Notes: generated from the sequence alone by a model not told the origin. A stretch of DNA of 19,641 bases from a virus (IMGVR_UViG_2671181085_000003); one strand, 5' to 3'. Positions 5,056 through 12,992 are shown, counted from the first letter of the stretch. A program made the numbers and translations.

Positions 5056-5898
5056 ATCTCACACCTCCGGAAATCCCCGCTGAAGCCATCATTAATGCGA
5101 CATCATCCTCGCTGACATCCACCACATCCGCAGAAGGTGAAATATCGCCCCCTCCCTCCCCACCGAACCGGACGCCTCCGGCAAGTCCTGCCGCTTTCTG
5201 CATCAGCATGTCTTCCTCATCCGGCCTCTCCGTCTGCGCTTCCTCACGCCGGGGGACGAGCAGACTGAAATCCGAGGGATGCATATCCGGATCGCAAAAA
5301 AACAGGCTGAGTACGGCGTACGTCAGCCCGGAAAAATGCATATCCAGCTGGGTATCGTGAAAATAATGCGTGCGGTAAAAACGTCGCCAGTCGGCATATT
5401 CGGTGGATGTCATCCCGGCAAGCATGGCTCGCCAGTCGGCTCTCCCCATCTCACGCGCCAGTTTCAGGACAAAGTTCAGCTCGCCTTCGAATGCTTTTTT
5501 GATGTTACCGGCTCAGTCGCTTCTGCTTTCCCGGTTTGTTCAGGATCGGCATCGTGCCGGTTATCCAGCATACCTGAAAGATAAAGCACCCGGTTCGTTG
5601 CCTGATTCAGTGCATCAGCAGGCCATCCCAGCATCACTTCACGGCGGATCTGCTGCATCTCTGTCTCCGGAGAGGCCAGAGTGCCTTTGAGGGAATGGGA
5701 ATGCCATAGCGACATCGCCACAAGCAGGGATGCCGTTTCCAGATATCGCTGGTTAATGTGCACGGCATCATGCTCCGTTGTCTCCTGTTGTGCTGCGTCT
5801 GAAACAAACTTCATATAATCAAACCGCTGCAGCGCAGACAGCTCCGACAGCGTGACGGACACCCCGTTATATTCAAATTGTTCTGTTTTCAGGAACAT
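5036..5898 (-). CDS. T: Tail assembly chaperone G-T fusion, made by programmed -1 ribosomal frameshift
   Basis: The T frame (5036..5512 open) is -1 relative to G and overlaps the G 3' end; slippery heptamer A_AAA_AAG at 5494-5500 (minus strand) sits in the correct register at G codons 134-135. Predicted fusion is about 287 aa. Confidence 0.7.
5476..5898 (-). CDS. G: Tail assembly chaperone G
   Basis: Start at internal ATG (MFLKTEQFEYNGVSVTLSELSALQ...), giving 140 aa, the lambda gpG length; the ORF-track start upstream at 6012 is rejected. Confidence 0.8.
   Translation of the reverse strand: MFLKTEQFEYNGVSVTLSELSALQRFDYMKFVSDAAQQETTEHDAVHINQRYLETASLLVAMSLWHSHSLKGTLASPETEMQQIRREVMLGWPADALNQATNRVLYLSGMLDNRHDADPEQTGKAEATEPVTSKKHSKAS
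5494..5500 (-). other. -1 programmed frameshift slippery heptamer A_AAA_AAG
   Basis: Zero-frame reading TC-A AAA AAG (Ser-Lys-Lys) in G; the -1 frame reads AAA AAA and continues open into T. Confidence 0.65.
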
Positions 5899-8435: not shown

Positions 8436-9464
8436 TTATTTCACCTGAACCACCACAAACTCATCCGGATCCGGCAGCACCATCAGCGGAGCGGACTGCG
8501 TCATGGTGAATTCACGGGCCGGATCGCCAACGGTCAGCCAGTGTTTCGGATAACGGGAAGAGGCCACCACACCTTCGGACAACGCCTGCGCATCCTGAAT
8601 GGCACCATAGCAACGGATGCCATCAGCAGCCGTATTTCCCAGGACCAGCGTGCCCTCCGGCAGATAACGTTTTTCGGTACCGTCCTCTGCCACATAAGAC
8701 GTTTTCGCCACCACAATGGCCAGATCGCCGTAATACCCCTTGAAGGACACCACTGCGCCCAGATCTTTCACTGCCGTTTCGAGTTGTGAATTTGAGCCGC
8801 GACGGGTATCCAGTTTTTCGCGGAACAGCTTAAAGCCATTCAGCAGACGCCAGACCGTACCGTCCATAATGGCGATATTCACAAGACCGCTGGCCTGATC
8901 GCAGTAGAGGTCAATATCATGCGTCGGATCAAACGTATCACGGTCCTGCTCAGACCATTTTTTACCGTCAGCCTGCTCAATGTTATTTCCTTCAGAGCGC
9001 CCGAAATCAACCTCGACAGTATCAAACTGCTCCCCTTCCATGGTGTATTTGCCATACAGAACGGCATTCACCGCCTGCATTTCTTCCACCTGGACAATGG
9101 CGTGCTCTTCCTGTTTGAGGTTATCGGTGATGATACGCAGACGACGGTAGGCCGGGTCGTTCAGCTGCGCCGGATCTTCACCGGGAAGGCGCTCCACCGC
9201 CTGCTGGTAATTAAATTCGTGTTTCGGCTTGACGTAGCCCGGACGCAACACGCGGGTTTCACCACCACGATGACGCAGCACTTTTCCTTCAACAACCGGG
9301 GAGACATAGGCTGCCACCGGCGTTTTTCCGGTAATTTTATCCAGCATCACCTCTTCGGTGTGGAAATTCACCGTACGGCGGAAAAACAGCTCCAGAAACA
9401 GCACACGAAATTTCACTTTTTGTTCGGTATAACCGAGTAACTGGCGGGTCGTAAACAATCCCAT
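8436..9464 (-). CDS. E: Major capsid protein E
   Basis: 342-aa ORF; long conserved stretches match my recollection of lambda gpE (GYVKPKHE, EEMQAV, KLDTRRGSNS, ETAVKDLG, GDPAREFTM, QSAPLM, DPDEFV). Confidence 0.95.
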   Translation of the reverse strand: MGLFTTRQLLGYTEQKVKFRVLFLELFFRRTVNFHTEEVMLDKITGKTPVAAYVSPVVEGKVLRHRGGETRVLRPGYVKPKHEFNYQQAVERLPGEDPAQLNDPAYRRLRIITDNLKQEEHAIVQVEEMQAVNAVLYGKYTMEGEQFDTVEVDFGRSEGNNIEQADGKKWSEQDRDTFDPTHDIDLYCDQASGLVNIAIMDGTVWRLLNGFKLFREKLDTRRGSNSQLETAVKDLGAVVSFKGYYGDLAIVVAKTSYVAEDGTEKRYLPEGTLVLGNTAADGIRCYGAIQDAQALSEGVVASSRYPKHWLTVGDPAREFTMTQSAPLMVLPDPDEFVVVQVK

Positions 9465-9521
9465 AAATCAGTTCCTTTCATTCAGAAATCAGTCAGGCCA
9501 ACGCGGTGGCCTGATAACGTG

Positions 9522-9869
9522 TTACGGCAGCGCCACGTGACTCAGGGCTGTGCCGACAAAGGCGTTGGCCTTTTTGTGTTCATCCACACTTTCAGGCCAG
9601 CGGACTGCCTCCGTCGCAAAGGTCCCCGACTTGTAATACGTCAGCACCGTCTCTGTGCCTTCAAGCGGCAGTACCAGTATGCCAACCGCACTACCGGCTT
9701 TCTGTCCGTCCCAGACCACCAGTTTCCCGGTGGCTTCATCCAGCATCAGGGGCGTCAGTGCCGGTGTTGCCTGAGAAATCCCGCTGCTGCCTGTGGCGGT
9801 ATGAGCCGGATCATTACCGGCAAAAATACGTACTTCCGCACGCTGTTCAGTGATGGTTTTCGTCACCAT
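9522..9869 (-). CDS. D: Head decoration protein D
   Basis: 115-aa ORF with DPAHTAT, TPLMLD, WDG, AVGIL and YKSGTF motifs matching lambda gpD. Confidence 0.9.
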   Translation of the reverse strand: MVTKTITEQRAEVRIFAGNDPAHTATGSSGISQATPALTPLMLDEATGKLVVWDGQKAGSAVGILVLPLEGTETVLTYYKSGTFATEAVRWPESVDEHKKANAFVGTALSHVALP

Positions 9870-9904: not shown

Positions 9905-10507
9905 TCATGGCATGGCCATGAGCATTTTCACGTCCGCATCACCGTCTGCTGACGTCTGTGGCACGCCACCCTGCACCGCTGCCGGTGAATAGTTCGCCAT
10001 GAAATGTTCAAACAGGGCGGTTGTGGATGCAGAAACCGGTTCTGCCTTACCTGATCCCGCAGCCAGCACAGCCCGGGCGTTCTCCACGGTCATTCCCGGG
10101 CAGGCCGCCAGTTTTTCAGCCTGCGCCTCAGCCCCTTTTGCCTCATCCAGATCCATAATCTGATCACGGAGTGAGAGCCCGGCATCCGCCCGTGGTGCAG
10201 CCGCCAGGACAGGGCGGGCTTTTTCCACCGTCATCTCCGGCATCGCCGCCAGCGTTGCCGCCAGTTGTTCACGACCTTTCGCTTCTTCACACGCCATAAT
10301 GCGATCGGCTTCACTCTGCGCGGATGCCACCGGCTGCTGCGGTGCTGCCGCGGCCAGAATCGCCCGGGCCTGTTCAACGCTCATGCCCTGTTGTCCTGCC
10401 AGCATCGTGGCAAGCTGTTCACGTCCTTTCGCTTCCTGACACGTCAGGATCCCCATCACTCGCTGGTTCTCCTGCGCGGCAGCTTCCGTTGCGGTTAATT
10501 GCGGCAT
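9905..10507 (-). CDS. Nu3: Scaffolding protein Nu3 (internal in-frame start within C)
   Basis: Internal ATG at 10507 (MPQLTATEAAAQENQRV...) preceded by a perfect AGGAGG Shine-Dalgarno with about 5-nt spacing; in frame with C and sharing its stop, as for lambda Nu3. Confidence 0.6.
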   Translation of the reverse strand: MPQLTATEAAAQENQRVMGILTCQEAKGREQLATMLAGQQGMSVEQARAILAAAAPQQPVASAQSEADRIMACEEAKGREQLAATLAAMPEMTVEKARPVLAAAPRADAGLSLRDQIMDLDEAKGAEAQAEKLAACPGMTVENARAVLAAGSGKAEPVSASTTALFEHFMANYSPAAVQGGVPQTSADGDADVKMLMAMP

Positions 10508-11410
10508 AGTGCCTCCTGTATCATGTGTGTTCAGCGCCGCAGCCATCACGCTGATGGCATCCGACGCATTGATTAATTCATCCGCCAGTCCGGCCTTAAT
10601 ACCGGACTGACCTTCAAAAACGGCAGCCTCTGTCCCCGTGACGGCATCCACAGACAGACCGGTATACATCGCCACTTTTTCGGCAAACATCCGGTGCGCC
10701 GCATCAATCCGCTGCTGCATGTCCTGGCGAACCTCTGACGGCAACGCTTCAAACTGATTGCCATCCACCTTATGCGCCCCGGCATAAATCAGCGTGATAT
10801 CCACTCCGGCCTGCGCCAGATGACCGGCATAGCTGACATGGCCCATCATCACGCCAATGGAGCCGATACGGGATGTCTGGGTAACCAGCCGTCGGGAGCA
10901 GGCCGACGCCAGCAGCATGGCCGCAGAACAGGCCGTGTCATTACACAGTGCCCAGACCGGCTTCTGCTGACGGAGGCGGTAAATCATGTCAGCGCAGTCA
11001 AACGCACCGGCGGCCTGCCCGCCCGGACTGTCAATATCCAGCAGTACGCCCCGGACAGAGGTGTCCGCCATTGCCTGCTGAAGACAGGCAACAATGCCGT
11101 CATAGCCTGTCATTCCGGAAAATGGCCGCATGCCACCCAGCCGGTGCACCAGCGTGCCGGTCACCGGCAGTACAGCAATACCGTTCACCACCCGGTAAAC
11201 ACGGGCCGGTCGTTTACCTCCGGCCATGTACTCGTCCGTTTCAGCCAGCATCCCGGGCGCATCAAGCTGTACCTGCTGTTGTGGTAACGAAAGACTTGCT
11301 GCCCCCATCTCGCGCCCGAGCGCGCAAAAGAAAACCCGCGCATAGGCGGGCTCCAGAAGCAGCGGTTCATTGAATGCTGCGGCAATAATGTGTGAAAGAT
11401 TACGTCTCAC
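9905..11410 (-). CDS. C: Capsid assembly protease C (S49/ClpP-like), with in-frame scaffold region
   Basis: 501-aa ORF; N-terminal AAFNEPLLLEPAYARVFFCAL and the VLPVTGTL, GMTGYDGI, AFDCAD, KPVWAL, RLVTQTSRIGSIGVMM, KVDGN blocks match lambda gpC. GTG start overlapping the B stop. Confidence 0.85.
   Translation of the reverse strand: MRRNLSHIIAAAFNEPLLLEPAYARVFFCALGREMGAASLSLPQQQVQLDAPGMLAETDEYMAGGKRPARVYRVVNGIAVLPVTGTLVHRLGGMRPFSGMTGYDGIVACLQQAMADTSVRGVLLDIDSPGGQAAGAFDCADMIYRLRQQKPVWALCNDTACSAAMLLASACSRRLVTQTSRIGSIGVMMGHVSYAGHLAQAGVDITLIYAGAHKVDGNQFEALPSEVRQDMQQRIDAAHRMFAEKVAMYTGLSVDAVTGTEAAVFEGQSGIKAGLADELINASDAISVMAAALNTHDTGGTMPQLTATEAAAQENQRVMGILTCQEAKGREQLATMLAGQQGMSVEQARAILAAAAPQQPVASAQSEADRIMACEEAKGREQLAATLAAMPEMTVEKARPVLAAAPRADAGLSLRDQIMDLDEAKGAEAQAEKLAACPGMTVENARAVLAAGSGKAEPVSASTTALFEHFMANYSPAAVQGGVPQTSADGDADVKMLMAMP
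10055..10462 (-). repeat. Tandem triplication of a ~40-aa module in the C/Nu3 C-terminal region
   Basis: Three consecutive copies of I-M-x-x-x-EAKG-(R)E-x-x-A-x-x-LA-x-x-x-x-M-(T/S)-VE-x-AR-x-(V/I)-LAA visible in the translation and as repeated DNA. Confidence 0.7.
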
Positions 11411-12992
11411 GTGGTGTTGTCTCCTCTTCCGGCCTGCGGCTCTCCGCTATCTGCTGCTGATACGCCTGCGCTATCCACACCGGACGTGAGAGTCCGGCTT
11501 TTTCCCGCTCTGCGGATTCCCTGACCTGCTGGCGGAAAATGTCCTGATAATCCTCACCCATCAGCGCCAGCTCTTTCTCATACGTGCTCAGTCCGGCCTC
11601 AATGCGCATCACCGATTCCTGGACCTCCTTGAGCCCGTCAATGGCCATTCTTCCTGCGCCAATCCACTCTGCCCGCGACCAGGCTGAACGCGCCTGATAA
11701 AAATCAAAACGTGCCCGTGGCGGACGGATAATCCCCCGAAGAAGTGCCTCTTCCAGCCAGCAGGAAAACATCTGCGTGGCCAGCCGGGCCGCAATAAATT
11801 TTCGTCGTCCCATAAAATAACGCCACGACTCATTGGCGGAGGCGCGGGCACTTGAGTAACTGACCTTCGAGTAATCACGAGACAACTGTTCGTAGGAAAC
11901 GCCAAGACCGGCGGCGATATACCGCAGCAGCGCCTGTTCAAGCGCAGAAAATCCATTGTCTGAATCCTGCGCAGTCTGCAGTTTCAGATCATCCCCGGGG
12001 AAAAGGTGCGGAATTTTGACACCACCCAGCGTCACGTGATTCGTGTCATACCAGCTGGAGAACTTCTCCAGAATATTAATAAGCGGATTATCCTTCTGCT
12101 CCTGTGGCGCGCCGGCGATATATTCAAAGGCCTTTTCGGTATCAAGTTCACTTTCAATCGTCGCTGCATACATCGCCTTCACTATGGCCGACTGAAGCTG
12201 TGTTGCCTGCAGGGAATCGAGCATCTTCAGCCGTTCCATGACGCTGTAAAACTGATTAGCCCCACGGGTCTGCCCGTCCTCCACCGGCTCGAAAATATGC
12301 AGCATGGTCGGACGCCCGGTGGGAAGTTCACGCGGGATCCGTTCCCATCGTCCACTACCAGAGAACGGAAAATCATCCTCACAGATATGGTACGCGACGG
12401 CACGGCCATATCGATCGACCTCCACACCGGCCCGCAGAAAACGGTACCCCATACCGTGTCCAGGCGTGTCCACCCGTTTCGGACTCACGGCTTTAAAACG
12501 CGTACGGAATAACTGCGTGGTTTCCGTATCCCAGACCGGCTGCACAAAGATTTCGCCGTTAAACGCATGAACGCCCACACCTTCACGGATAAATTCCGTG
12601 AACGTGCGTTTTCCTTCCACGTCGATCTCGCCAAACATCCCTTCTGCGTATTCCGACCAGGCCGCCTCCACCTCATCGACAAAACTTTTTGCCGCAGTCT
12701 CCCGCATCCCCAGCCAGCGCCAGTTCGGACGGTAGCTGATCAGAAACATATGCCCGACAATATGATCCTTATGCAGGGCCACCGCATTAGCCGCTATCCC
12801 GTTATTGCGCACCAGATCATCTGCACGGGCATTCCCCAGACGCAACGCGGGCAGCAGGGCCGCATCGGCACTCTGCGAGGGTGGCAACCACTCCGCCATT
12901 TGCCCGCCAAATCCTGCACCGCCCCCGTGGTAGCTGAGACTCTCCCGAAGCGGAACGCCGTTCACATCAATCAGGACAGGCGTTCGTTTCAT
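11400..12992 (-). CDS. B: Portal protein B
   Basis: 530-aa ORF (lambda gpB is about 533 aa) between W and C. Confidence 0.9.
   Translation of the reverse strand: MKRTPVLIDVNGVPLRESLSYHGGGAGFGGQMAEWLPPSQSADAALLPALRLGNARADDLVRNNGIAANAVALHKDHIVGHMFLISYRPNWRWLGMRETAAKSFVDEVEAAWSEYAEGMFGEIDVEGKRTFTEFIREGVGVHAFNGEIFVQPVWDTETTQLFRTRFKAVSPKRVDTPGHGMGYRFLRAGVEVDRYGRAVAYHICEDDFPFSGSGRWERIPRELPTGRPTMLHIFEPVEDGQTRGANQFYSVMERLKMLDSLQATQLQSAIVKAMYAATIESELDTEKAFEYIAGAPQEQKDNPLINILEKFSSWYDTNHVTLGGVKIPHLFPGDDLKLQTAQDSDNGFSALEQALLRYIAAGLGVSYEQLSRDYSKVSYSSARASANESWRYFMGRRKFIAARLATQMFSCWLEEALLRGIIRPPRARFDFYQARSAWSRAEWIGAGRMAIDGLKEVQESVMRIEAGLSTYEKELALMGEDYQDIFRQQVRESAEREKAGLSRPVWIAQAYQQQIAESRRPEEETTPRET

Follow-up and report, generated by a model that had tools for sequence, protein, structure and literature searches.

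The head maturation protease gene of a lambdoid prophage raises two questions: whether a repeated module in its C-terminal part is an oddity of this prophage or a regular feature of its type, and whether an ATG inside the gene starts a separate scaffolding protein. The window, that is, the whole stretch of 19,641 nt of viral DNA that was analysed (IMGVR_UViG_2671181085_000003), is filled by the late (head and tail) operon of the prophage, encoded on the minus strand. The genes follow the order terminase, portal, a 501-aa protease ORF, decoration, major capsid, and then head-completion and tail genes. The minus strand carries the portal gene at 11400-12992, the decoration gene (shp/D) at 9522-9869, and the major capsid gene at 8436-9464. 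Their order, with C between portal and decoration, is that of lambda and phage 21. The portal and protease genes overlap by 11 nt (11400-11410), identically to genes 4 and 5 of phage 21. Between the decoration and major capsid genes there is a terminator-like hairpin (window 9493-9514, minus strand; 8-bp stem with five GC pairs, followed by a T-rich tail), at the location of the annotated rho-independent terminator between D and E of phage HK629. This hairpin may have a role in the ratio of upstream to downstream head proteins.

The gene under study, a head maturation protease/scaffold fusion, occupies 9905-11410 on the minus strand; it begins with GTG, encodes 501 aa and ends with the stop codon at 9905-9907. 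It is a homolog of lambda gpC, since it contains an S49 (SppA-type) peptidase domain (aa 146-293, window 10532-10975, minus strand; Pfam PF01343, E = 2.5e-35), matches phrog_53 'head maturation protease' (4.8e-223), and can be aligned with SppA at the Ser and Lys positions. The solved SppA structures 3rst and 4kwb are matched at ~1e-17. Ser162 (minus-strand codon 10927-10925) is aligned with the Ser of the SppA 'AASGG' motif, and Lys214 (codon 10771-10769, minus strand) with a position reading Ala in 3rst. Both residues are invariant across lambda, phage 21 and Gifsy-1 in the family alignment, and they are the predicted catalytic pair. The C-terminal tail of the protein, delimited by alignments and AlphaFold, covers aa 457-501 (window 9908-10042, minus strand); its extreme end is conserved (..LMAMP in the window, ..LLNTPV in lambda). 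We also observed that phrog_1999 ('unknown function', 135 positions) matches only the portion from module 2 of the repeat to the C-terminus (window 9905-10318, aa 365-501), and these limits suggest that in some phage annotations a Met within module 2 has been taken as the start of a shortened ORF.

The repeat itself consists of three tandem modules of about 46 aa, encoded on the minus strand. Module 1 (Tri1 box) covers aa 314-359 (window 10334-10471; ENQRVMGILTCQEAKGREQLATMLAGQQGMSVEQARAILAAAAPQQ), module 2 (Tri box), aa 364-409 (10184-10321; AQSEADRIMACEEAKGREQLAATLAAMPEMTVEKARPVLAAAPRAD), and module 3 (Tri3 box), aa 411-456 (10043-10180; GLSLRDQIMDLDEAKGAEAQAEKLAACPGMTVENARAVLAAGSGKA). All three were delineated using the EAKG motif, which occurs at aa 326, 376 and 423 of the 501-aa ORF, together with the alignment, a module HMM and the phage 21 annotation. 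Identity between the modules is 41-52% in protein and 51-61% in DNA. Local alignment scores of module pairs range from 81 to 108, compared to a mean of about 25 (sd about 5, maximum 53) in 2000 composition-preserving shuffles, of which 0 reached the observed score. With z = 11-17, three consecutive copies in the C-terminal part of the C ORF, as claimed in the earlier note, are thus confirmed. The interval proposed there, 10055-10507, begins at the internal ATG and stops in the core of repeat 3; the actual repeat span is 10043-10471.

DNA-level searches missed the modules: Tandem Repeats Finder yielded only a trivial 11-nt repeat, and a direct-repeat finder only short chance-like pairs, because the repeat is visible only at the protein level. 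In profile comparisons, phrog_8399 'head scaffolding protein' (131 positions, with a single module) has three distinct matches within the C-terminal 200 aa, and the module HMM finds three modules in the window ORF and one in lambda. Sequence searches of the 200-aa scaffold part against Pfam, NCBIfam and PDB gave no significant match.

The closest known counterpart is phage 21. The window gene and phage 21 gene 5 are 95.5% identical in DNA over 1506 nt, ungapped, with a GTG start in both; the difference comes down to point substitutions only, with 27 of 501 amino acids changed. A 656-nt query of the region is 94% identical to phage 21, and the tblastn identity to 21-type phages is 90-95%. Phage 21 and the window also agree in the lengths of genes 5 and 6 (501 aa and 200 aa), the nested ATG with a ribosome binding site (RBS), the three repeat units, and the portal, shp and major capsid genes on either side. 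The remainder of the window is less similar, about 68% of its length being matched by phage 21 at about 87% identity, and is nearer to prophage-derived phages, e.g. PhiR12.

The layout has already been annotated in this phage. GenBank record M81255 ('Bacteriophage 21 head gene operon') contains gene 5 (501 aa) and the nested gene 6 (200 aa), and within gene 6 it marks the repeat regions 'Tri1 box', 'Tri box' and 'Tri3 box', labelled 'function unknown; putative'. Transferred to the window, these boxes fall at 10337-10440, 10190-10300 and 10046-10159 and translate to the units described above, e.g. IMACEEAKGREQLAATLAAMPEMTVEKARPVLAAAPR. The products in OL657228 (complete phage 21 genome, 2021-era) are named 'capsid protease/scaffolding protein' and 'scaffolding protein', and a note in the Gifsy-1 record cites the phage 21 gp5 UniProt entry as containing 'Scaffold protein GP6'. 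Moreover, 1870 of 5426 complete E. coli genomes carry the region at 90-99% identity (in 1866 of them at least 80% of the query is covered), with up to five copies per genome, and it occurs in many isolated or induced coliphages as well. Given the annotation in a classical phage and the commonness of the prophage, the finding is ordinary; judged by sequence, the triple repeat with an internal start is the normal phage 21-type layout, already annotated, and is neither new nor anomalous.

Lambda C/Nu3 resembles the window locus in having an S49 protease, an in-frame nested scaffold gene, a common C-terminus of the two products and the same place in the head operon. Lambda C (J02459) can be aligned over its whole length with 58% identity over aligned columns, and the tblastn identity to lambda-type phages is about 53%. 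In contrast to the three modules of the window, lambda has one module of the family (ENSRIMGILNCEEAHGREEQARVLAETPGMTVKTARRILAAAPQ), preceded by a low-complexity Thr/Ala/Gln-rich linker that is 36 aa longer. Both the lambda C (J02459) alignment and the module HMM therefore bear out the single lambda copy given in the earlier note. A candidate remnant of a second module in lambda (DRLMQ...) was dropped, because alignments of the lambda tail to module 2 and to the post-repeat tail are both weak, and to the same degree (scores 22 and 28). Lambda Nu3 contacts C, E and itself according to two-hybrid tests and earlier work, and a table entry reads 'C may degrade Nu3' (PMC3224144).

Apparently lambda-type C loci (L018-L026, L043, L044, L049, L051-L054 and others) were also seen in assemblies of unrelated organisms, namely Neobacillus, Kitasatospora, Chromatium, Shewanella, Pseudomonas, Oceanobacillus, Leeuwenhoekiella, an Akkermansia MAG, Paenibacillus and Enterococcus. 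The assignment of these loci to the lambda type is based on the match length and the module position as in lambda. They often reside on short contigs with coverage of about 1 and look like contamination with lambda control DNA.

The second question concerns the internal start. The in-frame ATG at 10507 and its AGGAGG Shine-Dalgarno (SD) sequence, both pointed out in the earlier note, are present. The SD sequence occupies 10512-10517 on the minus strand (10517-10512 in the direction of reading), within the Gly-Gly codons GGA GGC. The nested in-frame gene (9905-10507, minus strand; ATG at 10507-10505) shares the stop codon of the protease gene and encodes 200 aa; it is the equivalent of phage 21 gene 6 and lambda Nu3. 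Gene 6 of M81255 starts exactly at the position corresponding to window 10507, so its CDS corresponds to window 9905-10507, and the RBS of the phage 21 records falls at 10513-10518, or at 10514-10518 for the one labelled putative in M81255. This agrees with the proposed reading of a separate Nu3-like scaffold, a putative 200-aa product that would carry all three modules.

It might be supposed that the internal ATG is unused and that only the 501-aa protein is made, a scaffold-like fragment being released from it by proteolysis. The spacer between AGGAGG and ATG is only 4 nt, which is on the short side, and the pattern AGGAGG-N3-9-ATG occurs in the window near its chance frequency (two occurrences vs 1.2 expected), the second one, at 7251-7240, being out of frame inside a tail gene. 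Moreover, the Gly-Gly-x-Met peptide might be kept for reasons of the protein. As the pattern alone is not rare, the evidence for the start rests on its conservation in homologs. The Met of the internal start is invariant in 13 of 13 diverse homologs. We then considered 24 distinct homolog sequences upstream of the start, from Escherichia, Salmonella, Trabulsiella, Providencia, Enterobacter, Kluyvera, Serratia, Erwinia and an Aeromonadaceae MAG. In 21 of the 24, GGAGG, GGAG or GAGG is located 3-5 nt before the homologous ATG; for the other three (L017, L029 and L048) the script chose an earlier Met and the DNA before the homologous ATG was left unread, and the peptides of two of them (L017 and L048) continue into a GG-N-M motif. 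A purine-rich SD sequence is retained where the encoded residues are not Gly-Gly (QENTM, KEDKM, GVNM, GEVM), which argues against constraint on the peptide. Conversely, where Gly-Gly is encoded, the first codon is always the rare GGA, though other synonymous sites are saturated between these genes. Further, two independent annotations of phage 21 place gene 6 at the equivalent of 10507, and the length of the 131-position 'head scaffolding protein' family of PHROGs is that of the lambda product starting from the homologous ATG. Hence we regard an unused ATG as unlikely; from the conservation of the SD sequence with the ATG and the 'putative' annotation, we infer that the internal ATG is used for translation.

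Still less probable is that the scaffold gene starts not at 10507 but further upstream, at the homolog of the annotated lambda nu3 start. In J02459, NC_001416 and HK629, nu3 or 'capsid assembly protein' is indeed annotated from an upstream ATG (lambda 5132, 201 aa), and PHROGs, along with the 131-position family phrog_8399, has a 201-position scaffold family (phrog_8940) that mirrors the nu3 annotation. However, the annotated start is located 210 nt upstream of the site homologous to the window start, and the homologous codon encodes Ile (ATT) instead of Met both in the window (10706-10708) and in phage 21. The records of phage 21 take the downstream start. Lambda itself has the SD sequence and the ATG at the homologous site, with AGGAGG at 5332-5337 and ATG at 5342 (locus L001, J02459, 2833-2845, corresponding to lambda 5332-5344). 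Given the Ile at the homologous codon and the family-wide conservation of the SD sequence and ATG at 5332-5342, it is rather the GenBank start of lambda nu3 at 5132 that is suspect; it is probably too far upstream, the conserved start being 5342 with a product of 131 aa.

The naming of the repeats as 'boxes' in M81255 invites the reading that they are nucleic-acid elements, i.e. sites bound by proteins, a promoter for antisense transcription or a structured RNA, and not protein modules. In OL657228, moreover, gene 6 contains two annotated matches to the CII-site pattern TTGYN6TTGY, read on the opposite strand. These are kept in the window at 10255-10268 and 10489-10502 (plus strand), where the coding strand reads Q-L-x-A. 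However, the pattern occurs three times in the window vs 3.6 expected, and the matches, being at chance level, are probably meaningless. No promoter-like sites were found inside the repeats, and a search of the whole window against Rfam gave no match. The sole signal of this kind is a hairpin within module 2 (10201-10217, opposite strand) that weakly resembles a terminator. Two mechanical antisense ORFs of 77 and 61 aa are also present (10265-10498 and 10324-10509, plus strand); they are in all likelihood spurious, a by-product of a coding sequence rich in G+C and Ala, because the codon-position statistics favour the minus-strand frame. Specifically, the differences between the window and Gifsy-1 in the repeats are distributed over the codon positions of that frame as 31/31/83, and the amino-acid differences amount to 32% in the repeats and 30% in the protease domain. 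Substitutions mostly at third codon positions and conservation of the repeats at the level of the protease point to selection on the protein. Together with the units being barely alike in DNA, to the extent that DNA repeat tools miss them, this makes it highly improbable that the boxes act as nucleic acid; we treat them below as protein modules.

The comparison of copy numbers among relatives, proposed earlier, was run using our own module HMM on C homologs from viral contigs and from genomes, one for each species, and yielded a range of one to four modules. Lambda-type genes of many Enterobacteriaceae contain one module, and phage 21-type and Gifsy-type genes contain three. A Buttiauxella gene (L012) has two weakly matching modules, and one viral contig (L142) has four, three of which are very alike. 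Another viral contig (L132, 2501-3853) has two modules through an exact 150-nt deletion between modules 1 and 2. The junction lies in a short stretch, GAAGCGAAAGGA|CGTGAACA, common to these two modules, which points to unequal recombination or slippage. One more contig (L097) carries a 19-aa in-frame deletion inside module 2. In two viral contigs (L128 and L133) the matches are 1 nt shorter and the reading frame is cut short (within module 3 in L128); these may be frameshifted copies (pseudogenes or sequencing errors). In a profile search, 565 proteins among 1.84 billion cluster representatives contained the module (E <= 0.001). When the best 150 of these 565 were rescanned, 51 proteins had at least 400 aa, and among them one module was found in 50 and three modules in one. 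Three modules are thus typical of one clade, but exceptional across the whole family.

Within that clade, the age of the triplication can be assessed from orthologs. The Salmonella Gifsy-1 'prohead protease; Lambda gpC homolog' (STM2605) and prophage homologs from Trabulsiella and Providencia have three modules and a GG-x-M start with AGGAGG, their tail lengths being unlike that of the window protein. Overall protein identity to the window ORF is 65% for Gifsy-1, 71% for Trabulsiella and 62% for Providencia. Window module 1 and its counterparts in these three homologs and in two viral contigs (L136 and L142) are 76-81% identical; for module 2, compared across the same set, the figure is 62-74%. 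For module 3 the identity to module 3 of the homologs is 52-60%, which is no closer than that of window module 2 to those units (55-60%). Paralogous modules within one protein are 43-57% identical. Corresponding modules are orthologous across phage lineages, and therefore the triplication is older than the split of these lineages and has been kept ever since. Judging by these sequence comparisons, it is old and stably inherited and is not a recent expansion.

An origin of the triplication in this prophage alone, whether by recent duplication, by recombination or as an artefact of assembly, can be practically dismissed: unequal recombination does occur in relatives (the 150-nt deletion fusing modules 1 and 2 in L132, the in-frame deletion in L097, the three very similar modules of the four in L142), but the repeats of the window are only 51-61% identical in DNA, all three have orthologs in phage 21, Gifsy-1, Trabulsiella and Providencia, and the region is carried at 90-99% by 1870 of 5426 E. 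coli genomes. The earlier suggestion that a repeat expansion reflects recombination thus stands for the relatives, where inter-repeat recombination has occurred (L132), but not for the window, where there is none and the architecture is old.

Structural models were built for the 200-aa product by AlphaFold using an alignment of 23 sequences. The model as a whole is of low confidence (pLDDT 68.8, pTM 0.28); it contains three similar helical units with pLDDT of 75-82, linkers with block means of about 61-64 and one stretch below 50, and a predicted tail helix at residues 160-173 of the 200-aa model (about aa 461-474 of the full protein) with pLDDT of about 50-64. AlphaFold of a single module (module 2) gives a helix at 2-27, a loop and a helix at 34-43, with pLDDT 84. 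The two models disagree in whether the first helix of the module is kinked at EAKG. Fold searches returned generic helical hairpins only, with no significant fold match. The predicted structures fit a scaffold part organized as beads on a string of helical modules. Lambda gpNu3 is reportedly intrinsically disordered, as the title of a 2011 paper has it, and the modelled beads-on-a-string arrangement is compatible with that too.

Taken together, the region is very probably a lambda C/Nu3 gene pair of the phage 21 type, with one frame, two nested products and a modular scaffold part. In the 501-aa product, an S49 serine protease at the N-terminus would be followed by the scaffold part at the C-terminus, and the internal SD sequence and ATG (10517-10505) would direct the synthesis of a 200-aa Nu3-like scaffold with the same C-terminus. 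The scaffold part would comprise three helical modules of about 46 aa, short flexible linkers and a short tail. By analogy with lambda C/Nu3 and other phage scaffolds, the abundant small product would drive the assembly of the coat around the portal, the common scaffold part would bring a few copies of the protease into the procapsid, and the protease would then digest the scaffold and itself. The modules would be interaction units, binding either the coat protein or each other, and a molecule with three such units would therefore have a higher valency than that of lambda with its one. The conserved module is the natural candidate for one of the contacts reported for lambda Nu3 (with C, with E or with itself), but whether the modules are coat-binding or self-association units at all is about evenly balanced.

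Two known systems are relevant here. The scaffolding protein of P22 binds the coat via a C-terminal helix-turn-helix; there is one such unit, at the extreme C-terminus, and the scaffold is recycled rather than digested. The likeness lies in small helix-loop-helix units (predicted here) in a flexible, extended scaffold that is removed after assembly. However, no sequence match or significant fold match to such a unit emerged for the Tri modules, and coat binding by the latter would follow by analogy. In herpesviruses (UL26/UL26.5), the abundant scaffold is translated in frame within the protease gene, and the common C-terminus targets both products into the procapsid; the nested protease/scaffold arrangement of the window is analogous. 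The herpesvirus protease, to our knowledge, has an unrelated fold and no sequence relationship to the protease of the window.

Since the layout is annotated in M81255 and is carried by about one third of complete E. coli genomes, the discovery value of the locus is small. The details added beyond the existing annotation are the conservation of the SD sequence and ATG, the range of one to four copies and the predicted helical hairpin, the copy-number part being minor. One tentative possibility, which we consider rather doubtful, is that the number of Tri modules is an evolvable 'valency dial' of lambda-type scaffolds, changed by unequal crossing-over (as in L132 and probably L142). If true, the copy number would tune the coat/scaffold contacts per molecule and hence the fidelity of assembly or the loading of the protease, and the much longer flexible linker of one-module lineages could be a compensating solution. 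The series of scaffolds with one to four modules, combined with the same protease and related coat proteins, is a natural resource for asking what the module does in lambda Nu3.
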